Source: Bdellovibrionota bacterium
Lineage (GTDB): Bacteria > Bdellovibrionota_C > UBA2361 > JAFLCA01
Direction of reading: 5' to 3'
NCBI GenBank assembly: GCA_041907145.1
Contig: JAYRHW010000283.1
Span: forward strand, 1,304-65,303
Length of the DNA stretch: 64,000 bases
Below, in pieces: positions 18,297 through 54,192 of this stretch (positions are counted from its first letter, which is position 1; the number at the start of each line of letters is the position of its first letter). Below the pieces are notes generated by a model. The model was given only the letters and a program-made list of their open reading frames with translations. It was not told the origin of the DNA and did no database searches. A program made the translations under genes and the position numbers.

Positions 18297-18640
18297 GATA
18301 AGAGCTCCGGAAGCTTCTTCACGAAAACAGAGCGCGGATAGATCTCCTTCATCCCCTCGTCACTGGCAGCCTTCTCCAGCTCATGGTCGACATGAGAATA
18401 ATACGCCACAAGTCTTACCGGGCGCGTGGACTTCCGGGTGCTATCAAGAACCTCGGCCCTATTCCAGTCCGCAGCTGAAAGATCCATTAGAATAAGACCA
18501 GCACCCAGTAGAATACCCTCACGCAGCTCAGCGATATCACGAACCGCTCTACAATTCTGCCCCAGTTCACGAGCTAGCGCGGAAATCTTGGATTTAAAAA
18601 TCAGGTCGCGGCTGATAACGAGGATGCTAGGCGAGTCCAT
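18284..18640 (-). CDS. receiver-like (degenerate CheY-fold) domain protein
   Basis: 118 aa with alternating beta/alpha pattern (ILVISRD ... LILMDLS ... RLVAYYSH). The canonical DD and K residues are missing. It overlaps the upstream sigma-54 activator stop by 14 bp. Confidence 0.45.
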   Translation of the reverse strand: MDSPSILVISRDLIFKSKISALARELGQNCRAVRDIAELREGILLGAGLILMDLSAADWNRAEVLDSTRKSTRPVRLVAYYSHVDHELEKAASDEGMKEIYPRSVFVKKLPELLSQVS

Positions 18641-20021
18641 AGGATTTTACCTTAGCAATGAGATTGGAGCGAGAAATTCCCAATTCCTTCGCTGCCTCGG
18701 AGCGGTTTCCCTTCGCTCTCTCGAGTGCGGACTGAATCATGTTCCTTTCGACATTTTCGATGGCATCCTTGAGATTGCCCTCCAGACGTCGTCCCTGGGC
18801 GGGAGGCAGGGGCCGTTCTCGCAGGTGAGCTGAAATCAAATCTGCATCGATTACGCTCGAGCTCCCTGCCATAAGCACCAAACGCTCAATTTCGTTTTCG
18901 AGCTCACGGATGTTCCCAGGCCAATGGTAGTCGCTCAATACACGAAGGGCATCCACACTCAGGGCCTTAACGGGGGACTTGCTCCGCTCCGCGATTACCT
19001 TCAGAAAGTGTGCGGCCAGGAGAGGTATATCCACTCGTCGCTCACGAAGCGGTGGGATTCGGACAGAGATCACATTCAGTCGATAATATAAATCCTCACG
19101 GAAAGTACCGGCCGCGACCATCTGTTTCAGATCGCGGTTCGTAGCAGCGATGATGCGTACATCCACTTTCTTGGTTTTGGTAGCTCCAACAGGCATGAAA
19201 GTGCCGTCCTGTAACACCCGCAGCAGCTTAACCTGCAGCGCTGGGCTCATCTCACCTAGCTCATCGAGGAAAAAGGTTCCGCCGTCAGCAACCTCGAAAA
19301 GCCCCTGCTTGTCTCGCACGGCTCCGGTAAACGCTCCGCGAACGTGCCCAAAAAGCTCCGATTCCAGTAGATTATCATTGAAGGCCGAGCAGTTCTGAAT
19401 TACGAAGGGCTTGTTCTTCCGAGGAGAATGATAGTGCAGCGCACTGGCAATCAGCTCCTTTCCGGTACCTGATTCACCGGTGATCAGGACTGGCACGTCG
19501 GAATCGCGCACCTTGTCCAGCAAAGCGAAGAGATCGCGCATGATCTGGCTCGCCCCGATGATATTCGCAAAGCAAGCGCGTTCCGACTCGCGCGATCGCA
19601 GCTCGGCGGTGACTCGATTGGAGCGCTGAAGCTCCTCGTAGAGCCTTCGCGTGCGCATGACGGCCGCGAGCCGCGCCATCAACTCCCCACTATCGAAGGG
19701 GCGGCGAACATAGTCATCCGCTCCGTTCTCAAGCCCTGCAATTAATGCCTCACTGGAGTCGTTCGCTGTGACAAGAACTACGGGAATATAGCGCATTGCC
19801 GCATCAGCCTTAATGCGCTTGGTAACCTCAAACCCATCCATGCCGGGCATATTCACGTCCAGTAAGATGAGATCCGGATTCTCGGCCTCGATGCGCCTGA
19901 GAGCATCAGCTCCGTTCCCAGCGGTCACCGTGCTAAAGCCGTTCTTCTGTAGGACCTGCTCCAGCGCGAAAAGTCCATCTTCATTGTCATCAACGACGAG
20001 GACTTTTGTTCGTACTGACAT
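18627..20021 (-). CDS. sigma-54-dependent response regulator (NtrC family)
   Basis: A REC domain (VLVVDDNEDG ... LLDVNMPGMDG) is followed by an AAA+ sigma-54 interaction domain (GESGTGKELIASALH; the GAFTGA-like loop; HWPGNIRELEN) and a C-terminal Fis-type HTH. Confidence 0.9.
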   Translation of the reverse strand: MSVRTKVLVVDDNEDGLFALEQVLQKNGFSTVTAGNGADALRRIEAENPDLILLDVNMPGMDGFEVTKRIKADAAMRYIPVVLVTANDSSEALIAGLENGADDYVRRPFDSGELMARLAAVMRTRRLYEELQRSNRVTAELRSRESERACFANIIGASQIMRDLFALLDKVRDSDVPVLITGESGTGKELIASALHYHSPRKNKPFVIQNCSAFNDNLLESELFGHVRGAFTGAVRDKQGLFEVADGGTFFLDELGEMSPALQVKLLRVLQDGTFMPVGATKTKKVDVRIIAATNRDLKQMVAAGTFREDLYYRLNVISVRIPPLRERRVDIPLLAAHFLKVIAERSKSPVKALSVDALRVLSDYHWPGNIRELENEIERLVLMAGSSSVIDADLISAHLRERPLPPAQGRRLEGNLKDAIENVERNMIQSALERAKGNRSEAAKELGISRSNLIAKVKSYGLA

Positions 20022-38162: not shown

Positions 38163-39287
38163 CTACGTAAAACGAGCGCGCTTTTTCTCGATCGAGTCGA
38201 GCAGCTCTTGGAACGATTCTGAAAACAGTTTTACACCTTCCTTCTGCAGCTGTAGAAGCAAATCACTGAAATCCAGTCCAAGTTGGTTCACCTTAGCCAC
38301 CAACCCCTTGGCCTCGGAAAGTCCCCGATGGAGCCGAGGTTCAACTGTCATATTTTCTCGCAACGCGTTTAGCGTTTGCGGAGGGACTGTATTCACTGTT
38401 TCGCGTCCCGCAAGCTCCTCCACATAAAGCACCGGGCTTAGATCCGCGCTCTTTGTTCCCGTGCTTGCCCATAAAGGTCTCTGAACATGAGCTCCTCGCG
38501 ACCTGAGCTTCGCAAACCTCTCCCCCTTGAAGAGCTGCTCGTAGCGCTCATACGCAAGCTTGGAGTTAGCGACTCCGATTTTGGCGCGGAATTGAGCCTT
38601 GTCCTCGGCCTTTGCCTTGCCCGACTTCACGAGCGCGTCGAATGCCTTTTCGCATATTGTATCTACGCGCGATACGAAGAAGCTCGCCACCGAGGCCAGC
38701 CCCTTGATATCCTGATTGCGGGCAGCACGCGCCTCGAGCGCGGAAAGGTATGCTTCCGCAACTTGCTCATACACCGCGACAGAAAAGATCAGCGTAATGT
38801 TCACGTTTATTCCGGCCTCGAGCGCCGCCTTTACGGCGGGCAACCCCTCAGGGGTGGCGGGGATTTTGATCATGATATTCGGTCGATTGAGCCGTGCCCA
38901 TAATCGCTTAGCGGCATCGAGAGTCCCCTTCGTATCGGCCGCCAGAAATGGAGATACCTCGATACTCGCATGCCCATCAGCGCCATTTGAGGCGGTATGT
39001 ATCGGAAGGAGAAGATCAGCCGCGGCGCCAACGTCGGCTATCATGAGATCCTCGCAGATGTCTTGTGCGCTCATTCCTCGTTTCGCCAAAGGACCAAGGT
39101 CGGCATCATAGTCGCTACTGTCCGCGATTGCTTTCTTGAATATCGTAGGATTACTCGTAAGGCCTGAAACTCCAGAGTCGATAATCTTTGCGAGCTCGCC
39201 GGAGTTGAGCACGTCCCTGGACAGGTTGTCGTACCAGATCGATTGCCCAATCTCGTTAAGTCCTATAATGAATTTATTTTTGGCCAT
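38163..39287 (-). CDS. tal: transaldolase (long, actinobacterial/cyanobacterial-type)
   Basis: 374 aa with the TSNPTIF motif and a Schiff-base Lys region. First gene of the OPP operon. Confidence 0.85.
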   Translation of the reverse strand: MAKNKFIIGLNEIGQSIWYDNLSRDVLNSGELAKIIDSGVSGLTSNPTIFKKAIADSSDYDADLGPLAKRGMSAQDICEDLMIADVGAAADLLLPIHTASNGADGHASIEVSPFLAADTKGTLDAAKRLWARLNRPNIMIKIPATPEGLPAVKAALEAGINVNITLIFSVAVYEQVAEAYLSALEARAARNQDIKGLASVASFFVSRVDTICEKAFDALVKSGKAKAEDKAQFRAKIGVANSKLAYERYEQLFKGERFAKLRSRGAHVQRPLWASTGTKSADLSPVLYVEELAGRETVNTVPPQTLNALRENMTVEPRLHRGLSEAKGLVAKVNQLGLDFSDLLLQLQKEGVKLFSESFQELLDSIEKKRARFT

Positions 39288-39815
39288 GGCGGACCCTTAG
39301 GTTAAGGAGGGGAAACACCGCCAACGCAGGCACGGTCATTTCCTGAAAAATCACTCTCTTAACCCTACTGCGAAAGAAGTCCGGGTGCCAGGGGTGAGTA
39401 GAGATCCGCAGGCTTTTAGAGGTTAGCCGGAAGTTTTCCGAAAACGGAACGAATTGGCGGCTCTTTTGCTTCAGATTCGCTTTTAGCAGAGCTTTCTCGG
39501 AGCGTCAGTACTTCCGCCCGGCAGACCTCCCGAGCCTCGGCCCGAAGTCTGGCAAAATCGAAGCGCGGGGTGCGGCGTCCGTAGGACACCAGATCTCTTT
39601 GACGAATAGCTTTGCGACGAGCACTCATGAGGCTTCCCCGATTTCTAGCGCCGGATAAGGCGTTTACAAGAATTATCAAAAACCGAGGAAAACCGAATAG
39701 AATGTCTGGTTAGTGAGATTACCCTACCTCGCTCTACAGACTCAAAGGTTATGAGCGAAGACTGAATACATGTTCCCTAAGACAAGTACACAAAAAACCA
39801 TGAGATTTCAGACTG

Positions 39816-40619
39816 TTACTTACCCGACTCGGCTCGTCCCGAGGCCAGGCGCGGTACATCGAGCGGGCCAGGGTAGGAAATGATATTGCGCTGGCGATTA
39901 CGGTAAAACTGGTAGCTCGTGTAAAGACAGTTGAGAGCATACGGAATGCCGTTTACGTGGCAGATCTCATCGCCATAATAGGTCGGGATTGGCCTCTCCA
40001 CGATGCGCATCTCACGCTCAGCCATCGCTAAAATAATCTGCGTGTCAAAATGCCAGGTGTTCGTAAAGGATTCGAAGGGAATACGCTTAAGTGCCTCGGT
40101 CGAGTACAGCCGATACCCCGAGTGATATTCGCTCAAGTGCAATCCAGAAAGGTGATTCTGGACCGCTGTCAGGATTCGATTGCCGATAAATTTGTAGAGC
40201 GGCATTCCCCCTTTGAGTGCGGCGCCCTTGGTGGACATTCGAGAACCAAAAACCATGTCTGCCTTTCCCTCTGTTAACGGCTCGAGGAGGAACGGCAAAG
40301 CCTCGGGGGCGTACTGCCCATCTCCGTGGACAAGCGCGACTATGTCGAGCCCCCTTTCGATGGCGTAGCGATATCCTACCTTCTGATTGCCGCCATAACC
40401 CTGATTTTTTTCGTTGCGGTGGATCGTTAGCTTCTCAATCTTGTTCTCATACTTGTAACCAAGCGCAGCATAGTACGTATTGTCCTTGCTGCAGTCATCG
40501 ATGACAAAAATTTCATCGACCTGCTCATAGAGGTCAGAGGGTATACGAGAGAGGGTCTTGATGAGGTGGTTAACCGCGTTGTAGGCGATGATGAATATTC
40601 CGATGCGTGGCTTGCTCAT
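39816..40619 (-). CDS. family-2 glycosyltransferase
   Basis: 267 aa GT-A fold (IFIIAYNAVNHL ... VIDDCSKDNT ... DGDGQY). Its start overlaps the rimO stop by 4 bp. Confidence 0.75.
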   Translation of the reverse strand: MSKPRIGIFIIAYNAVNHLIKTLSRIPSDLYEQVDEIFVIDDCSKDNTYYAALGYKYENKIEKLTIHRNEKNQGYGGNQKVGYRYAIERGLDIVALVHGDGQYAPEALPFLLEPLTEGKADMVFGSRMSTKGAALKGGMPLYKFIGNRILTAVQNHLSGLHLSEYHSGYRLYSTEALKRIPFESFTNTWHFDTQIILAMAEREMRIVERPIPTYYGDEICHVNGIPYALNCLYTSYQFYRNRQRNIISYPGPLDVPRLASGRAESGK

Positions 40620-42112
40620 AATGTCTGAACGTCTTCGGAAACCGCCCTGTTCTCCGTCTTTCCGCGCTTGACCTTACCAACAAGATCATACCCAGCAACC
40701 TCGGTTATTTCAACCGGGACGAACTGTCCCGTGGGAACCTCGGCAAGATCGAACTCGGCATCGTTCATAATGACAATCCCGTCGACGTCGGGAGCCTGAA
40801 ATTCGGAACGTCCCGCAAGGAGCAGCTCAGTCTCATCGTGCTGCCCCTCCACGAGGACCGATAGCACCTGTCCTCGCAAGCCATCCAGCCGCCTCTCGTT
40901 TACCTCTTGTTGCGCGAGCATGATGCGCTCGCGGCGCTCCGCTTTAACTGACTCCTCAACCTGTTGCTTGAGGTCATGAGCCGGCGTTCCCAGCTCCGGC
41001 GAATAGGTGAATACGCCGACGGATGAGAAGTAGCCTTCGCGGACGAAGTTCTCTAGTTCTGCGATATCGCTATCGCTCTCACCGGGGAATCCGACAATAA
41101 ACGTGGTACGCAAAGCGATGCTAGGCTGCCGACTGCGAATAAACTCTGCAATTCTGCGCGGTGAATATCGGCCAAGCGGGCGCTTCATCTCTTTGAGCAC
41201 CGATTCGCTTGCGTGCTGCAGCGGCAAGTCCAGGTAATTACATACTCTCGGCAAGGCCACGATTGAGTCTAAGAGCTCCTCATCAACGCCGATGGGATAG
41301 GCATACAGAAGTCTAATCCAATCCACCGCCCTGCCTGCGTCAAGGGCCTTGAGCAGCGCAGCGAGATTTCCACCCTTATGGTCGCCGCCAAACGAGGTCA
41401 AATCCTGGGCAACCAGATTAATCTCCCTTACCCCCTGCTCTCCGAGGGCCGCTACCTCTCGCACCACCGAGTCGATGGAGCGGCTACGCATATTACCCCG
41501 GATTTTGGGAATAATGCAGAAGGTGCAGGGCCTATTGCATCCCTCAGAGACCTTCACAAAGGCGGTGTGTCGCTTGCTTGCCAAATAGCGCGGCGTGGAA
41601 TCGTCATATAAGAAGTACGGGCGGGCGGCCGAGGATAACGTATCTTCCAAAACACCCCCGGCGGCTTCCGCGACCCTCATTACATCCTGAGTGGTAATAA
41701 ATGCGTCGACTTCAGGAAGTTCGGCGCGCAAGTCACCGCGGTAGCGCTCGACGAGACAGCCGGCCACAACTAATTTTCGCAAGCGGCCTTGTGACTTGTA
41801 TTCGGCGACGTCGAGAATGCAATCGATGCTCTCCTGGATAGCGGACTCCAAAAATCCGCAGGTGTTGATGATAGCGACGTCCGCCTGAGAAACTTCGCTG
41901 ACGATTTCGTATCCGCTGCTCTTGAGAACACCCAGCATTACCTCGGAGTCCACCTGATTCTTCGCGCAACCCAGAGTGACAACCGCAGCGCGGCCACGAA
42001 ACGATTTGGGTTCGAGGGCGTAATCATGCGTGCGGACGTTCATACTCACCCCATCGGCGCAGCACGCGGCTCCCTCTGTTGATTCTCCGACGATGGATAG
42101 TCTGGATTTCAT
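40616..42112 (-). CDS. MiaB-family radical-SAM methylthiotransferase (RimO-like)
   Basis: MTTase N-domain (VVTLGCAKNQVDSE), radical SAM CNRPCTFC and a C-terminal TRAM domain. It has an N-terminal extension of about 50 aa. Confidence 0.8.
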   Translation of the reverse strand: MKSRLSIVGESTEGAACCADGVSMNVRTHDYALEPKSFRGRAAVVTLGCAKNQVDSEVMLGVLKSSGYEIVSEVSQADVAIINTCGFLESAIQESIDCILDVAEYKSQGRLRKLVVAGCLVERYRGDLRAELPEVDAFITTQDVMRVAEAAGGVLEDTLSSAARPYFLYDDSTPRYLASKRHTAFVKVSEGCNRPCTFCIIPKIRGNMRSRSIDSVVREVAALGEQGVREINLVAQDLTSFGGDHKGGNLAALLKALDAGRAVDWIRLLYAYPIGVDEELLDSIVALPRVCNYLDLPLQHASESVLKEMKRPLGRYSPRRIAEFIRSRQPSIALRTTFIVGFPGESDSDIAELENFVREGYFSSVGVFTYSPELGTPAHDLKQQVEESVKAERRERIMLAQQEVNERRLDGLRGQVLSVLVEGQHDETELLLAGRSEFQAPDVDGIVIMNDAEFDLAEVPTGQFVPVEITEVAGYDLVGKVKRGKTENRAVSEDVQTL

Positions 42113-42116
42113 ACGA

Positions 42117-42830
42117 CTAGGCTCCGGGGTTCTTGCGGCGATCGTTTATATCTCCGCCCTTGGGAAAGCTGGCGGCAAAAGTATCCTCCGGAACTTTGAC
42201 ATTAACGGAGAGTCCCGAAAGCAAAATCGAGGTGGTATTGCCTCCTACATCGGTCACGGCGGCGCCGCGGGGATAGAAGTCGTCGCCGACGAGAAGCTTA
42301 AAGGCTTTGAGGGAGCTGGAGGGCGTCGACTGGGCTGTCTGTCCAGGGGCAAACTCCAGGATAGTGCCAACAGCACCAGGGCAAGCTCTCAGTAAATTGA
42401 AATCTCTGCTGAGGTTCCCTAGCCCCATTAGAAAGGCTACCGGTAAGTCTGATATAACTCGGTCTTTGAAATCGTCGATAACCAGCTGATTTTCACTCTT
42501 TTGGTAGTACCACAGAGTTCCATCACGAACGAGAAACGTTTGCTCCTCCGGGGATAGATACAACCACTTCATCTTCCCAGGTCTAGTAAACCAGACGGTG
42601 CCAGAACTCATTTCAGATATTTCCAGCGCCGAAACAAAGGAGTCTTGGGAAAACGAGGCACTCAGTGAAGCGACCTTGCTGTAGGCCTCCTGGACGTGTT
42701 GAACCACCTCCCGTCCCTTAGCTACGGCAAGCGCCTTGCCGCCGGAACAGGAGAAGTCTCCTTGCTCAGCCATGAGGCTCGCGGGAGCAACGACAAATAG
42801 AAGAAATGGAAGAATTCCGACCCAACGCAT
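42117..42830 (-). CDS. lolA: outer-membrane lipoprotein carrier protein LolA
   Basis: 237 aa with a signal peptide and a LolA-like beta-barrel pattern. It conserves the ftsK-lolA neighbourhood seen in E. coli. Confidence 0.6.
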   Translation of the reverse strand: MRWVGILPFLLFVVAPASLMAEQGDFSCSGGKALAVAKGREVVQHVQEAYSKVASLSASFSQDSFVSALEISEMSSGTVWFTRPGKMKWLYLSPEEQTFLVRDGTLWYYQKSENQLVIDDFKDRVISDLPVAFLMGLGNLSRDFNLLRACPGAVGTILEFAPGQTAQSTPSSSLKAFKLLVGDDFYPRGAAVTDVGGNTTSILLSGLSVNVKVPEDTFAASFPKGGDINDRRKNPGA

Positions 42831-42972
42831 AAGGGAGGGATAATAAGCTAGTTCAGATACTTAGGCAAACTGGCTGCTTTTATCTTAATCCTATGGAGAG
42901 CTTGTCAGGCCTTCGCCTCCTACCGGTCCGCGGAATGGTTGGCGTCTCGAAGTGCCGAAGATTTTAGCGAGA

Positions 42973-43117
42973 GGATGGGTGCAGGGGCTAGGCCCTTGCC
43001 CGTCTTCGGAATCTTGGCGCAGCCAAGTATCGAAATATTAAATATTAACGGTGGGATGGGGTGCAGGGGCTAGGCCCTTGCCCGTCTTCGGAATCTTGGC
43101 GCAGCCAAGTTCCGAAA
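42973..43117. repeat. tandem direct repeat of two units of about 63 bp, each carrying two short perfect palindromes
   Basis: Unit A 42973-43035 and unit B 43053-43117 are about 95% identical: gatggg(g)tGCAGGGGCtagGCCCTTGCccgtcttcggaatCTTGGCgcaGCCAAGt..cgaaa. They are separated by an AT-rich 17-bp spacer (period about 81 bp). Confidence 0.7.
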
Positions 43118-43120
43118 GGT

Positions 43121-43173
43121 AAAATAAAGCGCGGCGGCTTCCTCGTGTCTCCACTAAGAATGCCGCCGCGCGC
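43121..43173 (-). terminator. strong terminator-like hairpin (10-bp all-GC stem) followed on the minus strand by a U-rich run
   Basis: GCGCGGCGGC (43129-43138) pairs perfectly with GCCGCCGCGC (43162-43171) over a 23-nt loop. On the minus strand it is followed by UUUAUUUU (fwd aaaataaa 43121-43128). Confidence 0.45.
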
Positions 43174-44155
43174 ATGGCAGAAAGTTAAGTCCCTCGAGAG
43201 ACGAAACTTTTGTCTTTAAGCTCCAAGCGCTCTTGCGATGGTGTCCTACTCCCGGGTTAGCGAAAGTCGGTCCTGTCTGAGAGCACTGACCGTTAGGCCA
43301 GTCGAAGCTTGGATACCTGAGTAAAGATCTCCAATGGTAGACTAATCACCCCCTGAGTTTAAACTGCAATGTTTTGAATATCGCAGCCTTTTCTGTCTGC
43401 AGCTTTCGTTCAAAGTGGCTTTGCCTGTTTTCACAGTACCTACTTTCGCAGGTTTTTCCACCAAGACCTTCCTCCCTTTCGGGATTCGCTGTCATCAGTT
43501 TTGCTAATTGCGGATACTCCTGTTTCCAGTTTCACCGTTTACAGCTTTTCTCAGATCCTCCACCGAACCCTTTCGGGTTGATAGAAGCGAGGGCTTTGCT
43601 CCATCGATACCGCGACAAAGCCGAAGCCTTGTTTCGCGCTATCTGACGATCTCCGCTGGTCGCCCAACGAAGCCCTTTCCATGAGAGTCGGTCACCCAAA
43701 ACAATGGATTCCAAGACGTCAAACTGAAAGCAAGCGAACGAAAAATCGGTTTCCCGTCTATCGCAGCCTCCCCTCATCTCCTTCACTGGCGAACCAGAGA
43801 GATCAACGATGAACAGACAAGGCCTTCACTTCTCTACGTCTCAGAGAGCCACCGCTCTCTTCACTCTGACTCTTAAGTACCTTCGCCTCGCGGCAAGATC
43901 AATAAAAAACGGGAACTGAATTGGAAATTTCTCAAGATGTTGAATCTTTCTTTCTTCGATCCATGACGAGCGAGTTATCCACAATGTTGGAAAAATTTTT
44001 ATCTTAGTGGTCAGACACATCAAACAACTTCAACACACTTGAAGGTGTTACTCAGCCCGCACCAGGCCACTATTCATACGACGTTCCATTTTTTGAGCGC
44101 TTCGGCAGACTAGCTGGCGCCCGGAGATGAGTGCTGCTCTAACCAGCTAATACCA
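43174..44155. other. about 1-kb ORF-poor non-coding segment downstream of ftsK; candidate structured ncRNA or degenerate element, identity unknown
   Basis: No ORF of 60 aa or more has a credible start or composition on either strand. The segment is AT-richer than flanking genes. It has several short GC stems closed by UUCG-type tetraloops (ccctttcggg at two places) and mutually exclusive stem options near 43590-43650. Confidence 0.3.
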
Positions 44156-46813
44156 CTAGGCCTCGGGCTCGTGGGTCGGGACGATAACCTCCCTGGGCTT
44201 TGCGCCGTCCATGGGCCCAACCAAGCCATCCTTTTCCATCATATCGATGATGCGCGCAGCACGATTGTATCCTATCCGAAACGCTCGCTGCAGCATTGAG
44301 GTGGAGGCCTGCCCCTTCTGAAGCACTAACTCTACAGCACGGTCGTAAATAGCATCGTACTCACCCTCATCGTTGAGAAGATCTTTGGTCTCGCTGTTCT
44401 CGTCCTCCTCCAGCACCTTCTTGCACATCTCAAGAATCCGCTCGTCGTATTGAGGCTTGCAGCGTTTCTTAACCGCCTCGACGACATTCTTCACCTCAGC
44501 GTCAGAAACGAAGGCACCATGAATGCGGCGAAGTGCCTCTGCGCCCGGCAACATGAACAGCATGTCGCCCCGACCGAGCAACTTATCTGCCCCCATCTGA
44601 TCGAGAATGGTCCGAGAATCAACCCGCGCCGTCACACGGAACGAAAGACGGGCTGGGAAATTGGCCTTAATGAGCCCGGTGATTACATCGACGGATGGTC
44701 TCTGCGTTGCGATAATCAGGTGAATCCCAGCAGCTCGGGCTTTCTGAGCCAGTCGAGTGATGAGCTCCTCGATATCTCTGCCAACTGTAAGCATCAGATC
44801 AGCGAGTTCGTCAATCACAATGACGATTTTCGGCAGCGGCTCAAGCACCTCGGCGACAATCGGCTCCGCCTCCTGCGAACCTTCCTCGCTCTCGTTAATC
44901 CCCGCAGGCTCGGCATTTGGCGCCGCAACGGTCCCGGATTGGACGACGTCTTCCTCTGCAAGCTGTATGACACCTTCGGCGGCGCCAACGGGGGACTTCT
45001 CCTTCTCTCCGCGCACAAGAGCATTGTAGCCATCGATATTACGCACCCCGAATCGCTGCATCATGCGATAGCGCCGATTCATTTCATTCGCCGCCCACTG
45101 CAAGACGCCCTTGGCCTGCTTTGGATCGGTCACGACCGGAACACGAAGATGCGGAATATCCTCATACACACTCAATTCCAGGATCTTCGGATCTATAAGG
45201 ATCAACCCCAGTTCCTCAGGACGAGCGCGATACAACAAGCTCACGAGAAGCGCGTTGATACAAACGGACTTGCCGGTGCCGGTCGCGCCGGCCATGAGTA
45301 GATGCGGCATAGTAGCGATGTCAGCGACCACTGGATCGCCGTACGTATCCTTGCCGACGGGAACGGTTAATATCGACTCGGCGTTCACAAACGCCTCGCT
45401 CTCCAAGACATCACGGAGTCGAACTATATCGCGATGCTTGTTGGGTACCTCGATACCCACCGTTCCCCGTTTAGGGATCGGGGCGATAATTCGGAGCGAG
45501 CTTGCGCGCAAACTCATGGCCAAATCATCTTGCAACGCTGCAATTTTCCCGACTTTCACCCCAGGAGCGGGCTCGAACTCGAATAGGGTAATGACCGGAC
45601 CTGGATGAACGTGGGTAACTTTGCCAAAAATTCCAAAATCTTTGAGCTTATTCTCGATTTGGCGCGACTTATCCCGCAATTCATCGTCATTCTCGCCGCC
45701 GACGCTCGGCTCCCCAGGACTCAACAAGCTAACATCGGGCAACTCGTAATCTGGAAAAAGCTTCGGCACATAGACCTCCCGCTCCTCCTCTTCCTTTTCC
45801 TTGCGGCGCTTACGAGCCGCCTGCGCTGCCTTGGCTCGCTCCTCGGCGTCCCGGCGCTTTACTACAACACGGGAGTAGTCCTCTCCGAGATCTTCGGCGG
45901 GAGAATCATCGTCAAGCTCCGATAGATCTTGAGTGCTCGGGGTAGGATCATCGTCATCATCCGACAAGGTCTCAACCTGTTCATCAAGAGCAGTGCTGTT
46001 CTTGCGCAAGCGAGGACGCGGCAGCTTCCATTCCCTCTCCTCCTCATCCGGTGAGGATTTCGAAGTCTTGGAGCCCTGAGTTGAAGACTTTTGCTGCGGC
46101 AGTTGTTCTAATGAATGGAGAAAGAAAACCGCTGCTCGCCGGGCGGTCCACACCGCTAGGCGGGGAAGTCCAATGAAGAGCGCATATAACGTGGCGCGAG
46201 AAAATCGCTGGAACCCCTCGAATAAGCTCGCAACGGACTGCCGCGTTGCGATCGCAAAGCACAAAACGAATAATGCTCCGGTAATCAGGCTGGCTCCGGC
46301 CGTGCTAAAAAGTCGAACGAGTGGTCGAGCAATCAGCCCGCCGACGCTGCCCCCGCCCGAAACTCCCCAAAAAACGGCTGCTAGCGCACACGAGAAAATC
46401 AGAATACCCAGCAAGCCACACAACATCAGCAGTTTGGGCGTTTTGCCGTAATCTTCAAGTAGATCTTCGGTATTCCAAAAATATCGGGACAGGATGAGTG
46501 CCCAGGCCACGGGTACGAACGCGCACCAACCCATGAACCCGGACAGCATCGTTCCCACGAAATGCCCAACTGGTCCGAATGGGTTTTGCAACAGTCTTAC
46601 ATCTGACACATCGAGACCGAAGAGCTGCCCACGCTCGGCCTGGAAGGATAGGAAGCTCACGAGAATGAAAACTGAAAAGGCAAAAAAGACGACGGCGAGA
46701 GCCTCATTAGCCCACTCTATCGATGCGGAGAAATTACGCCCCTTAGCGGAAGTGCCGCCTGACTTTTTACGCGGGAGCCCGCGACGTTTCGTGGCAGTGT
46801 TTGTCATGCCCAT
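44156..46813 (-). CDS. ftsK: DNA translocase FtsK
   Basis: 885 aa with N-terminal TM segments, a Pro/acidic linker, a RecA-like motor (LLMAGATGTGKS) and a C-terminal gamma/KOPS-binding domain (QRAFRIGYNRAARIIDMME). Confidence 0.9.
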   Translation of the reverse strand: MGMTNTATKRRGLPRKKSGGTSAKGRNFSASIEWANEALAVVFFAFSVFILVSFLSFQAERGQLFGLDVSDVRLLQNPFGPVGHFVGTMLSGFMGWCAFVPVAWALILSRYFWNTEDLLEDYGKTPKLLMLCGLLGILIFSCALAAVFWGVSGGGSVGGLIARPLVRLFSTAGASLITGALFVLCFAIATRQSVASLFEGFQRFSRATLYALFIGLPRLAVWTARRAAVFFLHSLEQLPQQKSSTQGSKTSKSSPDEEEREWKLPRPRLRKNSTALDEQVETLSDDDDDPTPSTQDLSELDDDSPAEDLGEDYSRVVVKRRDAEERAKAAQAARKRRKEKEEEEREVYVPKLFPDYELPDVSLLSPGEPSVGGENDDELRDKSRQIENKLKDFGIFGKVTHVHPGPVITLFEFEPAPGVKVGKIAALQDDLAMSLRASSLRIIAPIPKRGTVGIEVPNKHRDIVRLRDVLESEAFVNAESILTVPVGKDTYGDPVVADIATMPHLLMAGATGTGKSVCINALLVSLLYRARPEELGLILIDPKILELSVYEDIPHLRVPVVTDPKQAKGVLQWAANEMNRRYRMMQRFGVRNIDGYNALVRGEKEKSPVGAAEGVIQLAEEDVVQSGTVAAPNAEPAGINESEEGSQEAEPIVAEVLEPLPKIVIVIDELADLMLTVGRDIEELITRLAQKARAAGIHLIIATQRPSVDVITGLIKANFPARLSFRVTARVDSRTILDQMGADKLLGRGDMLFMLPGAEALRRIHGAFVSDAEVKNVVEAVKKRCKPQYDERILEMCKKVLEEDENSETKDLLNDEGEYDAIYDRAVELVLQKGQASTSMLQRAFRIGYNRAARIIDMMEKDGLVGPMDGAKPREVIVPTHEPEA

Positions 46814-46935: not shown

Positions 46936-47604
46936 TTAACCTTGGGGCTTGCCGCCTGAAAACTGCTCAATACGCCGCGAGGACAGCTGACTCAGGGCGG
47001 ATCGAAACCCATCAGCCAGCAGGTCCTGAGCGCTGCGCCAACCAACCCCGGCCTCCGAACTGAAACGCTGCCGAGCCTTGAAGAGATTCTGGCTAAGAAA
47101 TTCATCTTGGAAGTGGTAGCTGGCCGTCCAGACCGTCTTGCCATCACTGCTGCGCAACAATCGCATGGAAAAGTCGACGCCTGCCGGCTGAGTGGCTCCC
47201 ACCGCAGATCCCTGGCGCTCCGTGTACCGCAAAATGGTAGTCCGCAGCACAGCGTCTCCCCCGAACTGCCTGGCCACAGCACGCGCAGAGTCGTCACTTG
47301 TAGCTTTGGAGGCTGCAACTCTTGCCGACTCAGCATCAATCAATTGCACATCCATCTGCTCGCGAGCCGCCTGTTCAAGCTGCGCTAGAATTCGATTCTG
47401 ACCGCCTGATGCGGAGCGCGCCCGCGGGTCGAATATTGGAGCTGCAATAAGAATACTGTTAATGCCGAGCAACTCACGTGGCGTCTCAGACTCGGCAATC
47501 AAGGCCGGAGTCGTAATTGCAGGAGAAAGCGAAGGTTGCGATCCTTGCCCGCATCCGCCCAGGAATCCCAAGCAAAAGGCAATAAAAATATGTTCTCTTT
47601 TCAA
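46936..47604 (-). CDS. hypothetical lipoprotein
   Basis: 222 aa with a lipobox (FLGGCG). The apparent start is TTG, with a GGAG SD 7 nt upstream. No ATG is available downstream of the in-frame stop. Confidence 0.5.
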   Translation of the reverse strand: MKREHIFIAFCLGFLGGCGQGSQPSLSPAITTPALIAESETPRELLGINSILIAAPIFDPRARSASGGQNRILAQLEQAAREQMDVQLIDAESARVAASKATSDDSARAVARQFGGDAVLRTTILRYTERQGSAVGATQPAGVDFSMRLLRSSDGKTVWTASYHFQDEFLSQNLFKARQRFSSEAGVGWRSAQDLLADGFRSALSQLSSRRIEQFSGGKPQG

Positions 47605-47865
47605 ACCGTTACTCCAAGATTTGGACGTGCCACGTCAATCAGGGAAAGCGCCACAAGTATTCCCCAACCAAGACCAATGTACAATCATTATCGATCGGTC
47701 TATCTGTCCTGTTTTAATCTTGATTTTCGCTCATCGAATCGCTTTACTTTTTCGCTAGGTGTACGATAACAAATACACTCTCATTCTGCTCCTTCCGTCA
47801 CGGCAAATGGCACTGACGTGGAGAACCAGTAGAATTATCATATCGTTTCGCGGTTAGAGAATATC

Positions 47866-48240
47866 ATGAAGGCAGCTGAAAAAATCATCGACGCGCTTAC
47901 ACAACTCATGGAGGGCTACGCCGAGCTCCAGAGCTCTCTCGAAGAGGACTACGGGGTAACCGGCAAGGGCGCTGAGGAGGATAGCGAGGCAAACGCGGAG
48001 GTTGATGCAGCTCTGGTCACCGAAGTACGAGCAGCCGTGGAGTCAGTCATCGAAAACGAAGATTATAGCGCCGAAGAAGTGGCTGCTGTCATTTCCGCAG
48101 TAACTGACGCGTTGCAGGAAATCGATCCGGATCTCTTCCAGGAGGAGAAGGAAGAGGAGGAGGAAGACGATGATATCGACTACGATGATGATGACGACGA
48201 GGACTTTGAGGAAGAAGACGATGACGATGACGACGAGTAG
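47866..48240 (+). CDS. small highly acidic protein with poly-D/E tail
   Basis: 124 aa. A helical N-terminal half is followed by [32 protein letters not shown]. It is divergently transcribed from the lipoprotein gene. Confidence 0.55.
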   Translation: MKAAEKIIDALTQLMEGYAELQSSLEEDYGVTGKGAEEDSEANAEVDAALVTEVRAAVESVIENEDYSAEEVAAVISAVTDALQEIDPDLFQEEKEEEEEDDDIDYDDDDDEDFEEEDDDDDDE

Positions 48241-48329
48241 CGACACCGTCACCTATCGTTCGATATACGCTCGTTTGTCTAAATTTCAGTTTTGCTAGGA
48301 TCCAGAATTTGCCCGGGAAGTCGTTAGGC

Positions 48330-49586
48330 CTATTCCGGCAAAAGTCGGTACTCTGCCCAGCTATCCATGGGGAATCTTTCAACAGCGCGCTCAATATCCT
48401 TGCGCGAAGTTTGCTTGATGGTGGCAATAGTATCGGCAAGACTATGAACGGCCTGCCGATAGTTCCACTCCATCCCCAGCGCCATTAGTCGGCCCATCGG
48501 AAGCTCTCCGCTCAAAGCGATCTTGGCGCAAAGCTTGGCCTTTGCCCGCTCCAGGTCCGCCCCCGAGAATTCTAGCGGCGAGCGAATTATGCCCTCGACT
48601 ATACGAGCGACCTCCGGAAGCTTTTGCGGTGATGTACTGGCATACGCCAAATAACAGCCAGTCCCGTCCCTCTCGTCATTATCTGCTCCGGCATCTTCCG
48701 CAATGCCCTTGTCAACCAACTCCCAGTAGAGACGTGAGCCTGTTGAATCCCCCATCATCATGGAGAGCAGGGACATGGGATAGCGCTCCGGATCTTGCGC
48801 CGAAGCCCCCTCGCACATAAAAAGCACGTGCGACTGGGTGAGATTCTTCTTCTTAAGCTCCTTGCGCACGGGTTTGCCGCGATGTGGGCCGACATTTCTC
48901 TCAGCTTTGAACTGCTTCCAACCAGAGGTCTCCGCCTCTGCTCTACTGACAAACGCATTCCAATCGAAATTTCCCGTGCCCACCAGAACCATATTCGAAG
49001 GGGTGTATCGTCGGTCGAAATAATCCTTCATTTCATCGCGCTTTAACGCGCTGATGGACGCCGTCGACCCCAACACCGAATTACCGGCCGTGTGGCCTGA
49101 GTAAAAATCGGCCATGGCGTGTTCAAAAAGGTAAAAGTGGGGTCGGTCCTGATACAGTGCGATCTCCTCGAGAATTACCTTTTTCTCCATATCGTACTCG
49201 GCCGGATCCAGGGCCGGGCGTAGCATGTCCGAGAGCAATGATTGCATCTGCGCGAAGTACTCTGGGATCACCTGTGCATAGAAGACAGTATTTTCCTCCG
49301 AGGTGAATGCGTTTGCCTGGGCGCCGATATTGCCTAGCTCGTAGGTAATGTCGAGCGCGCTGCGCGTCGCAGTCCCCTTGAACATCATATGCTCTAAGAA
49401 ATGCGATACTCCGGCTTCCTTTCCAACTTCGTCCCGCGCCCCCGTCCTAACGAAGTAACCCACCGCGGTGCTTAATGCCTCAGCCCGTGGCTCGCCGAGA
49501 ACAGTGAGTCCGTTCTTAAGCACTGTCTTTCGAAACTTAGCGTCGCTCATGAAAACTCCTGCTCGCTGACTATGGGACGGAAGCAA
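48330..49586 (-). CDS. M16-family zinc peptidase (catalytically competent subunit)
   Basis: Carries the inverted zinc-binding motif HFLEHMMFKGT (HxxEH). Confidence 0.8.
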   Translation of the reverse strand: MLPSHSQRAGVFMSDAKFRKTVLKNGLTVLGEPRAEALSTAVGYFVRTGARDEVGKEAGVSHFLEHMMFKGTATRSALDITYELGNIGAQANAFTSEENTVFYAQVIPEYFAQMQSLLSDMLRPALDPAEYDMEKKVILEEIALYQDRPHFYLFEHAMADFYSGHTAGNSVLGSTASISALKRDEMKDYFDRRYTPSNMVLVGTGNFDWNAFVSRAEAETSGWKQFKAERNVGPHRGKPVRKELKKKNLTQSHVLFMCEGASAQDPERYPMSLLSMMMGDSTGSRLYWELVDKGIAEDAGADNDERDGTGCYLAYASTSPQKLPEVARIVEGIIRSPLEFSGADLERAKAKLCAKIALSGELPMGRLMALGMEWNYRQAVHSLADTIATIKQTSRKDIERAVERFPMDSWAEYRLLPE

Positions 49587-52547: not shown

Positions 52548-53975
52548 CTACTCTTCGGAGTTCTCACTCTGACTGTTCGCTACTTCCGGCCTGTCACTTA
52601 TACCGAGCTTATCCATCTTATATTTTAATATCCGGCGGCTAATCCCAAGCAACTCGGCAGCACGCGTCTGTACGAAGTTCGTCTTGCGCAGAGCCTTGAG
52701 AATCATCTCGCTCTCGAACATCTTCTCCGCTTCCTCGAATTTCATTGAATCGTCGAACGCCGGCGCCTTGAACCCTTCTAAGCTGCTTCGTGCCTTCAGC
52801 TTGCGCGGAAGATCGGCGTCCGTCACTTGCTCCTGCGGCGACAAAGCCATGAGGCTCTCGATTACGTTCTCGAGTTCCCGCACATTACCCGGCCAATCAT
52901 ACTGAACGAGAATGTTCATGGCCTCAGGCGATAGCTGCAGCTTCTTCCCCCCGTAAACCGGGGAGAACTTCTGGAGAAAATGCTCAACCAGAGATGGTAT
53001 ATCCTCGTAGCGATCGCGTAGCGGCGGCAGATTTACGCCGATAACATTGATGCGATAGTAGAGGTCCTGTCTGAACATCTTGGACTTTATCAATTCCTCT
53101 AGATTCTTGTTTGTAGCTGCGATAATGCGCACATCCACTTTAATCGGCTTCGAGCGACCTACTCTATAAAACTCCTGCTCCTGCAGGAAGCGCAGCATCT
53201 TTACCTGAACCGGCAGGCTCAATTCTCCAATCTCATCGAGGAACAACGTTCCTCCATCCGCCAACTCGCAGTGGCCGATGCGGCGTTCCACGGCGTGTGT
53301 AAATGCTCCGCGTTCATGACCGAATAACTCCGACTCGATCAAAGTCTCGGGTATGGCAGCACAGTTGAGCGCGATGAAGGGTTTGTTCTTTCGCGGGCTC
53401 AGCTCATGTATCTGGCGCGCAATCAGCTCTTTGCCGGTGCCCGACTCCCCTGTAATGAGCACCGTTGTGTCACGCTCCGCGACTTGACGAACCTTTTGAA
53501 ATAACTCGCTCATGCCGCCGCACTTGCCGACCATCGGCCCGAAATCAGCTGCCGGCGCCGGAATATGGCGCCCAGAGTTCTCCGCGCCCGCTGTGAGTCG
53601 CACGTCTGCGTTCGACAGCGTTCCGATGATCAGGGTAGTCAGCTCCTCCACTTCGAAGGGCTTGCTCAAATAATCCACTGCGCCCCACTTCATCGCCTGC
53701 ACCGCTGTCTTAACCGTATTCGTCGCCGTCAGCATGATGACCGGAGCTTCGATACTGCGCTCCTTGAGCTGCTTGAGGGTCTGCATGCCATCGAGATTCG
53801 GCATGAGAACATCGAGTAGTATAAGATCTGGTTTGATATCGTCGATAACGCTCAAAGCCTGCTGACCGTCCTCGGCTGTATGAACGTCAAAGCTGCTCTT
53901 TAGGAGCAGGCGCAGTGAATCGCGCACCCCTGCCTCGTCGTCGACTATCAGCACGCGCTTTCTAGGCTCTAACAT
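52548..53975 (-). CDS. sigma-54-dependent response regulator (NtrC family)
   Basis: REC (VLIVDDEAGVRD ... LLDVLMPNLDG), an AAA+ sigma-54 domain (GESGTGKELIARQIH, GAFTHA loop, WPGNVRELEN) and an HTH. The ORF-track start at 54023 is probably too far upstream. MLEPRKR at 53975 is more likely. Confidence 0.9.
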   Translation of the reverse strand: MLEPRKRVLIVDDEAGVRDSLRLLLKSSFDVHTAEDGQQALSVIDDIKPDLILLDVLMPNLDGMQTLKQLKERSIEAPVIMLTATNTVKTAVQAMKWGAVDYLSKPFEVEELTTLIIGTLSNADVRLTAGAENSGRHIPAPAADFGPMVGKCGGMSELFQKVRQVAERDTTVLITGESGTGKELIARQIHELSPRKNKPFIALNCAAIPETLIESELFGHERGAFTHAVERRIGHCELADGGTLFLDEIGELSLPVQVKMLRFLQEQEFYRVGRSKPIKVDVRIIAATNKNLEELIKSKMFRQDLYYRINVIGVNLPPLRDRYEDIPSLVEHFLQKFSPVYGGKKLQLSPEAMNILVQYDWPGNVRELENVIESLMALSPQEQVTDADLPRKLKARSSLEGFKAPAFDDSMKFEEAEKMFESEMILKALRKTNFVQTRAAELLGISRRILKYKMDKLGISDRPEVANSQSENSEE

Positions 53976-54192
53976 AAGAATCCACCGTCCCGGCCAACAC
54001 TTTTTCCTCAAAGTAAGATGCAATTTTGAACAGCTCGGTCACCCCGTACTTACAAAAAATGTGCGTTGCGGCGAGCCTAACCCTGTTCACCCTAGGGAAT
54101 ATAGGAAATTCAGCCACTTAGAAAGGGCCAATTTGGGCGGATGTCGGTCAATTTTGCACAGACGCAGGCGCTACCTAAGGCCTGGCAGCCCT

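Follow-up and report, generated by a model that had tools for sequence, protein, structure and literature searches.

A tandem double-hairpin repeat upstream of lolA, beside a candidate class of large structured RNA, in a Bdellovibrionota bacterium

Introduction

The REP elements and BIMEs of Gammaproteobacteria are imperfect, GC-rich intergenic palindromes of ~30 nt, which are clustered, dispersed and arranged in alternating orientation, with RAYT as their cognate. Mycobacterial MIRUs likewise form a dispersed family, present at many loci and with documented copy-number polymorphism. Tandem small RNA genes such as PrrF1/PrrF2 and LhrC1-5 each carry a recognisable promoter and a Rho-independent terminator, and they are conserved in relatives.

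Here we describe a tandem repeat located upstream of lolA in a 64,000-nt stretch of DNA (the window) from a Bdellovibrionota bacterium (assembly GCA_041907145.1, contig JAYRHW010000283.1). Like REP and BIME elements, the array consists of imperfect GC-rich palindromes of ~30 nt, forming a small cluster just downstream of a transcription unit. Its hairpins are stable and strand-asymmetric (G.T versus A.C), so that passive insulation or 3'-end protection is plausible here as well. Unlike REP and BIME elements, it has no detectable dispersed copies, runs head-to-tail and is accompanied by no RAYT in the window; moreover, its unit combines two different hairpins with ~20 nt of non-palindromic flank. 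With MIRU minisatellites and other VNTRs it shares a head-to-tail arrangement of 40-100 bp units, an intergenic position within a core gene cluster, a small number of units, homogenisation between copies and decay of the terminal unit. However, MIRUs occupy many loci and are polymorphic, whereas this array is known from one locus. The units resemble PrrF1/PrrF2 and LhrC1-5 in being near-identical, structured, intergenic and ~80-100 bp apart, but they lack an evident promoter, terminator or conservation of their own. Finally, the stem-loops are GC-rich and lie near a gene 3' end as intrinsic terminators do, and a real terminator adjoins them (43171-43121), but they are followed by a U tract on neither strand.

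Results

Structure of the repeat array

The array is located in the 1,325-nt gap between ftsK (44156-46813, − strand) and lolA (42117-42830, − strand; PF03548, E 2.2e-19), which contains no credible open reading frame. A RimO/MiaB-like gene (40616-42112, − strand) lies on the other side of lolA, and the neighbourhood as a whole is composed of core housekeeping genes. The repeat search returned two 68-nt copies (42977-43044 and 43059-43126) with a spacing of 82 and 93% identity, and TRF delimited an array at 42973-43126 with a period of 82, 1.9 copies, 91% matches and a score of 264. In addition, a 47-nt core pattern matched twice, compared with 0.00 matches expected from 100 shuffles. These results confirm the two near-identical copies that an initial annotation of the sequence had placed here, and the tandem duplication of a double stem-loop upstream of lolA is genuine. 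The distance of ~140 bp to the lolA ATG (42830) given in that annotation is right as well. Its period of about 81 bp was close to, but not exactly, the 82 obtained by repeat search and TRF, and its 63-bp units (42973-43035 and 43053-43117) were correctly located but too short, the alignment extending the unit to the whole 82 bp.

Repeat search, TRF and pairwise alignment together define two intact units, u1 (42961-43042), which is nearer lolA, and u2 (43043-43126). Their alignment contains a core that is identical at 52 of 52 nt without a gap (42977-43028 matching 43059-43110), flanked by sequence in which only 19 of 29 aligned positions agree and three positions are gapped. If the core had diverged as fast as the flanks, the chance of finding all 52 positions unchanged would be ~1e-9 by our own arithmetic. 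The last bases of u2 overlap the complement of the T tract that ends the neighbouring RNA gene, and the corresponding flank of u1 is also A/T-rich. A decayed third unit, u0 (~42908-42960), retains CGGAAT..TTGGCG..CCGAA and has lost the palindromes. It is in register with u1 at a spacing of 75 nt, and its local alignment to u1 scores 30, versus 15.0 ± 2.7 in shuffles (2 of 2000 as high).

By structure, the array is an intergenic minisatellite with head-to-tail 82-bp units in a non-coding region. A coding repeat was rejected, as 82 is not a multiple of 3, the units have no frame in common and stops occur in two of the six frames. A CRISPR was rejected because no unique spacers separate the two intact units, which adjoin each other, and because the repeat comprises the full 82 bp; this bears out the exclusion already made in the initial annotation.

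Folding and strand asymmetry of the hairpins

RNA folding of the + strand gives two directly abutting hairpins of ~13 bp in each intact unit. In u1, hairpin 1 (42974-43004, + strand) is composed of GAUGG / GCAGGGGC-UAG-GCCCUUGC / CCGUC and includes two G.U pairs, while hairpin 2 (43005-43034, + strand) is composed of UUCGG..CUUGGC-GCA-GCCAAG..UCGAA, the outer stem having one mismatch and one G.U pair. In u2, the fold places hairpin 1 at 43055-43086 (+ strand) and hairpin 2 at 43087-43116 (+ strand), the latter reading UUCGGAA-U-CUUGGC-GCA-GCCAAG-UUCCGAA, with 13 bp and one bulge. Hairpin 2 is thus a perfect 6+3+6 palindrome, CTTGGC-gca-GCCAAG, that extends to 13+3+13, and hairpin 1 has 13 bp with an internal loop. 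In hairpin 1 (GCAGGGGC/GCCCTTGC) a G.T on the + strand becomes an A.C mismatch on the − strand, and this palindrome is therefore imperfect. Of the two perfect short palindromes per unit that had been proposed, with 8-bp and 6-bp stems, only the one in hairpin 2 is perfect; both hairpins exist, but each reaches ~13 bp in the fold.

Each unit folds better than its shuffles on both strands (z −2.3 to −4.9). For u1 (42973-43036) the energy is −30.6 kcal/mol (z −3.2) on the + strand and −22.8 (z −2.3) on the − strand; for u2 (43055-43118) it is −36.9 kcal/mol (z −4.9) and −31.0 (z −4.65), respectively. Three positions are G.U on the + strand and A.C on the − strand.

Inspection of the sequence revealed no U tract after either hairpin on either strand. 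The sequence after hairpin 2 on the + strand is AAAGGUAAAAUAAAG or AUAUUAAAUAUU, and that after hairpin 1 on the − strand is ACCCCAUCCC. The array hairpins were therefore rejected as intrinsic terminators, being GC-rich stems without a U-rich tract behind them. Promoter-like matches did not exceed chance (two found, one of them on the + strand, versus 1.1 ± 0.9 in shuffles). The hexamer TTGGCG occurs in each hairpin 2, followed 16-18 nt on by TATTAA after u1 and by TAAAAT after u2, the latter picked up in the promoter search.

Scans with Rfam 15 gave no match at E<=1 in 42000-45000, a best score of 17.3 bits against a gathering score of 70 in 42880-43950, and no match at the gathering threshold in the whole 64-kb window, which also contains no tRNA or tmRNA. 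Set beside the consensus sequences of dif, parS, sigma-54 promoters and attC, the palindromes showed no apparent resemblance, and these readings were dropped.

A structured RNA gene next to the array

The orthologous loci were fetched through relatives of LolA and FtsK, which yielded 28 loci (~150 kb; L numbers below). Two of them keep a ftsK-lolA gap of ~1.2 kb, namely L002 (GCA_017302875.1, 'Deltaproteobacteria bacterium UWPOB_DELTA1') and L006/L007 (JGI 3300045389 and a Logan run). Over ~790 nt of this gap the three genomes have 72-77% DNA identity, although their LolA proteins are only ~56% identical. This conserved part contains a structured non-coding RNA gene of ~750 nt (43120-43867, − strand; L002 5128-5889; L006 4303-5067). 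It is bounded by a promoter-like TTGATC-17-TACTTA (43874-43902, − strand), which is kept in the three genomes and whose function is presumed, and by an intrinsic terminator (43121-43171, − strand) composed of a stem-loop (43171-43129) and a T tract (43128-43121, TTTATTTT).

The terminator is well preserved. Its T tract is kept in the window, L002 and L006, and its stem carries compensatory changes (GGCGGC/GCCGCC, GACGGC/CCCGTC and GACAGC/CCTGTC); the terminator helix, helix 29, has 18 pairs, two of them with changes on both sides.

RNAalifold on the three sequences, taken on the lolA strand, predicts 248 pairs at −258.8 kcal/mol with a covariation term of −14.1, and 45 pairs survive changes on both sides. 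The proportion of cells that pair is 94.9% and falls to 38-47% after sliding the partners by 1-3 columns. Pairs changed on both sides number 47, compared with 5-12 for slid partners and 19.1 ± 3.1 for shuffled ones (0 of 500 as high). The opposite strand reaches −178.6 kcal/mol with a covariation term of −3.0 and many A.C breaks. Moreover, the variable columns lack 3-base periodicity (101/93/88). The predicted RNA contains many GNRA tetraloops, one UUCG tetraloop and a nearly invariant core at ~43415-43555.

The Rfam scans assign this RNA to no family, and literature searches revealed no counterpart. The more distant loci L017 and L028, where lolA follows ftsK after 130-405 nt, lack it. In word scans of genomes and metagenomes the already known relative was the only real copy; three Firmicutes loci and L018 were rejected as chance word matches. 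We regard the RNA as a candidate for a new class of large bacterial non-coding RNA, known from three genomes. To our knowledge, large structured bacterial RNAs of unknown function are rare.

A perfect DnaA-box-like sequence, TGTGGATAA, is located at 43975-43983 (− strand), ~75 nt upstream of the −35 hexamer of the RNA gene and within a conserved block. In the relatives this site has 1-2 mismatches (TGTTGATAA and TGTGAGTAA).

The array fills a variable spacer

A promoter-like TTGCCT-17-TATTAT precedes lolA (42840-42868, − strand) and is kept in the window, L002, L006, L019 and L027, with 9 nt from the end of the −10 hexamer to the lolA ATG in every relative. The intact units therefore lie ~100-260 bp upstream of the −35 hexamer. 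In this region (GTTTGCCTAAGT...TTATTATC, 42828-42868, − strand) no Shine-Dalgarno sequence stands before the ATG. From its sequence, this arrangement suggests that the lolA mRNA is leaderless, with a promoter that abuts the start codon.

In the three-way alignment, the only unalignable part is the spacer between the T tract of the RNA gene and the −35 hexamer of lolA, and the tandem array fills exactly this spacer, directly after the terminator, a context that the initial annotation had overlooked. With ~252 nt, the spacer of the window exceeds those of L002 (78 nt) and L006 (105 nt) by about two units. The RNA gene, its terminator and the lolA promoter are all present in L002 and L006, but the spacers of these two loci are unrelated. 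The same holds at closer range, as the LolA proteins of L002, L027 and L019-26 are 72-76% identical to one another and their spacers are mutually unrelated. In L028, whose FtsK is 76% identical, the gap of 405 nt contains neither the large RNA nor the repeat.

The unit was aligned on both strands to eleven spacers upstream of lolA, each tested against 1,000 shuffles. A significant score was obtained for L023 alone (34 versus 16.9 ± 2.6; 0 of 1000 as high). L023 opens with 19 nt (GGCTGCGCCAACATTCCGA), 18 of which match one arm and the loop of hairpin 2 without a change of orientation; the homology stops at the hairpin end. The distance from this motif to the lolA ATG is 197-215 nt in L023, compared with 176-194 nt for u1. 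In the other spacers (L002, L006, L027, L008, L028, L017, L016, L003, L013 and L015) a diverged single copy was not significant against shuffles. An apparent likeness in L006, two hairpins in the same order, was rejected as unsupported by sequence or by fold z-scores. The LolA of L023 is 55% identical to that of the window. In the LolA identity matrix the L023 organism groups with L002 and L027, L006 is a sister at ~65% and the window is an outgroup at 55-57%. Together with the unrelated spacers of the related genomes, this distribution shows a spacer that turns over quickly, and a hairpin 2 (the 13+3+13 palindrome) that is patchy and older than the duplication.

The same spacer contains other repeats in the relatives. 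In L027 (1-200) there are three copies, one inverted, of a ~29-nt motif containing GTGGTCTT, which form a long hairpin (z −4.2); a second promoter-like sequence, TTCGCCTAAGT...TAAAATAAT, is also present, and the contig ends inside the repeat. In one relative, seven of eight independent Logan contigs (L019-L026) have a common start 140-141 nt upstream of lolA, at a GC-rich hairpin, GGGCGAGC-TCCC-GCTCGCCC (first 30 nt of L019-L026; 76-105 in L023). The common contig start suggests a repeat or indel polymorphism at this point in the population of that relative.

A second assembly supports concerted evolution

The only other assembly of the species is Logan contig L001 (SRR26835457; 2,337 nt), which encodes the LolA of the window and ends inside the repeat. 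Over the 176 nt upstream of lolA it differs from the window by one mismatch, located in the loop of hairpin 1. L001 starts exactly 30 nt before the first base that separates copy 1 from copy 2, and the variant base falls within these first 30 nt. Logan contigs are built from 31-mers, and each 31-mer occurs once per accession (PMC12424806). A start k-1 = 30 nt before the divergence thus means that this 30-mer has two continuations, and as it includes the variant, both copies carry the variant base in the L001 assembly and the other base in the window. A fault in a single assembly thus cannot account for the duplication, and the copies have been homogenised. The core is therefore kept identical between the copies by concerted evolution, through gene conversion or unequal exchange.

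Search for further copies

No further copy was found in the 64-kb window with sub-patterns at <=3 mismatches, with blastn-short or in the whole-window repeat search. Among the 28 fetched loci, blastn-short matched only L001 and L023. Exact 21-mers had no match in 185,579 species genomes or in the JGI metagenomes, and an exact 26-mer had none in IMG/VR; the window's own 21-mer was absent from the genomes as well, so these collections evidently do not include the source genome. A concatenated six-frame peptide probe of the core, run against 5.8 billion proteins, returned nothing. Among ten window ORFs of 154-232 aa no transposase or RAYT was found, seven having housekeeping Pfam matches and three having no match. 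A second locus is thus not detectable wherever a search was possible, the source genome being covered within the 64-kb window.

These results bear on the proposal that the array belongs to a dispersed REP/BIME family, the first of three options that the initial annotation listed without choosing; the others were duplicated protein-binding sites ~8 helical turns apart and a duplicated twin-hairpin RNA. The array hairpins do fit a REP-type stem-loop palindrome of ~20-40 nt. However, the copies are direct and head-to-tail rather than alternating as in BIMEs, and the closest relatives keep the locus without the unit, although 19 nt of hairpin 2 recur in L023. Since no other copy was found in the window, the 185,579 genomes, the JGI metagenomes, IMG/VR or the protein probe, a dispersed family is unsupported. 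Within what was searched, which for the source genome was its 64-kb window, the unit is unique to this locus and absent as a whole from the related genomes, the outcome that the initial annotation had itself named as speaking against such a family.

Discussion

We tentatively read the array as an extragenic palindrome module that is specific to this locus and whose role is passive at most, insulating the lolA promoter or protecting RNA ends, and no dedicated regulatory job; we consider this possible, a little short of probable. The alignments show that the spacer sequence right after the T tract of the terminator was duplicated in tandem, locally, and that the hairpin core is homogenised between the copies by gene conversion or unequal exchange. 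On our reading, read-through transcripts, antisense RNA or single-stranded DNA may adopt the stable hairpins, which could buffer the lolA promoter from the presumably strongly transcribed RNA gene, and the number of units would be free to drift. Several observations fit this reading less well. The abrupt transition from identical core to diverged flanks could result from selection acting on the two copies, and not from conversion alone. A passive hairpin should be constrained in structure and not in sequence, yet L023 shares 18 of 19 nt, which hints at sequence-specific recognition or mobility. Furthermore, the three wobble positions favour the + strand, opposite to the direction of read-through, and uniqueness in the source genome refers to its 64-kb window only.

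The identical cores and diverged flanks would also be expected from selection on two equivalent sites, and the palindromes could accordingly be tandem binding sites of a regulator, acting as operators or upstream activating sites at the lolA promoter. A period of 82 bp corresponds to ~7.8 helical turns and would present the sites on nearly the same face of the helix, permitting cooperative binding or looping. CTTGGC-gca-GCCAAG is a perfect 6+3+6 palindrome; moreover, L023 preserves half of hairpin 2 (18 of 19 positions), oriented alike and about equally far from the conserved promoter. Nevertheless, we consider binding sites unlikely: the unit is absent from L002, L006 and L027, in which the promoter is nearly unchanged, 13-bp arms flanking a 3-nt centre are typical of hairpins but rather long for operators, the unit nearest the promoter (u0) has lost its palindromes, and no candidate regulator was found. 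The recurrence in L023 has another possible source in mobility, with hairpin 2 being a low-copy extragenic palindrome of REP or MITE type that landed in the spacer and was then duplicated locally. Its distribution is patchy, since the window, an outgroup, and one ingroup member share 18 of 19 nt while the closest relatives of that member lack it, and the homology in L023 stops exactly at the hairpin end. The element sits just past a terminator in a spacer that collects other repeats (L027), and the short-read contigs of several relatives end in this spacer. Yet both known occurrences are at the same locus, with no second one in the 64-kb window, the ~150 kb of fetched loci, three DNA collections or the protein probe; the copies are direct and not alternating as in BIMEs, and the window encodes no RAYT or other transposase. 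Mobility is thus a decidedly improbable origin.

The strand asymmetry raises the question of a transcript. Each unit could encode a twin-hairpin small RNA on the + strand, from a duplicated gene directed toward the 3' end of the large RNA and possibly acting there. In each unit the fold of the + strand is more stable by 6-8 kcal/mol, the three wobble positions are G.U on this strand and A.C on the other, and TTGGCG in hairpin 2 is followed by an A/T-rich hexamer (TATTAA or TAAAAT) after 16-18 nt. However, three of three wobble positions amount to p ~0.125 only, the hairpins have no U-tract terminator, and the sole promoter-like match on the + strand borrows the complement of the neighbouring T tract as its −10 and does not exceed shuffles. 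There is neither an Rfam match nor a complementarity of >=12 nt to the large RNA or elsewhere in the window. Moreover, the unit is not conserved in the relatives that have the large RNA. It is absent from L002, L006, L027 and eight other loci, only 19 nt recurring in L023. A small RNA of this kind appears distinctly unlikely to us. A more far-reaching possibility, which we regard as very improbable indeed, is that the twin-hairpin units are functional partners of the ~750-nt RNA, either as convergent + strand small RNAs or as protein-docking hairpins that control its 3' end or couple it to lolA. If this were true, the whole ftsK-lolA insert would represent a novel locus, ribonucleoprotein or regulatory in nature, in an uncultivated Bdellovibrionota-like clade.

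On present evidence, the repeat does not represent a new riboswitch, mobile family or defence system. As a locus-specific palindrome module, it provides a small example of spacer evolution, with a homogenised hairpin core and concerted evolution between two haplotypes, and it illustrates the rapid turnover between a terminator and a conserved promoter. The array looks like an ordinary single-locus tandem hairpin repeat, and the adjacent RNA gene is the more remarkable of the two. The practical value of the repeat is that of a signpost to this RNA gene, which covaries strongly, is bounded by promoter and terminator and has no Rfam family; each new class of large structured bacterial RNA is of interest.

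Further features were observed elsewhere in the window. A 90-nt segment at 19207-19296 is 73% identical to 53179-53268, the two lying in − strand ORFs (18627-20021 and 52548-54023), and this likeness presumably reflects, from the sequences, a domain common to paralogous genes. The gaps at 47604-48330 and 39287-39816 contain no ORF of >=130 aa and no Rfam match at the gathering threshold; at the position of the latter gap, relatives carry a conserved small gene of ~64-71 aa (L002 9219-9431). In addition, all 4-kb bins have a negative GC skew on the + strand, and nearly every long ORF runs on the − strand. The uniform skew and ORF strand indicate that the window belongs to one replichore arm, with its genes co-oriented with replication.
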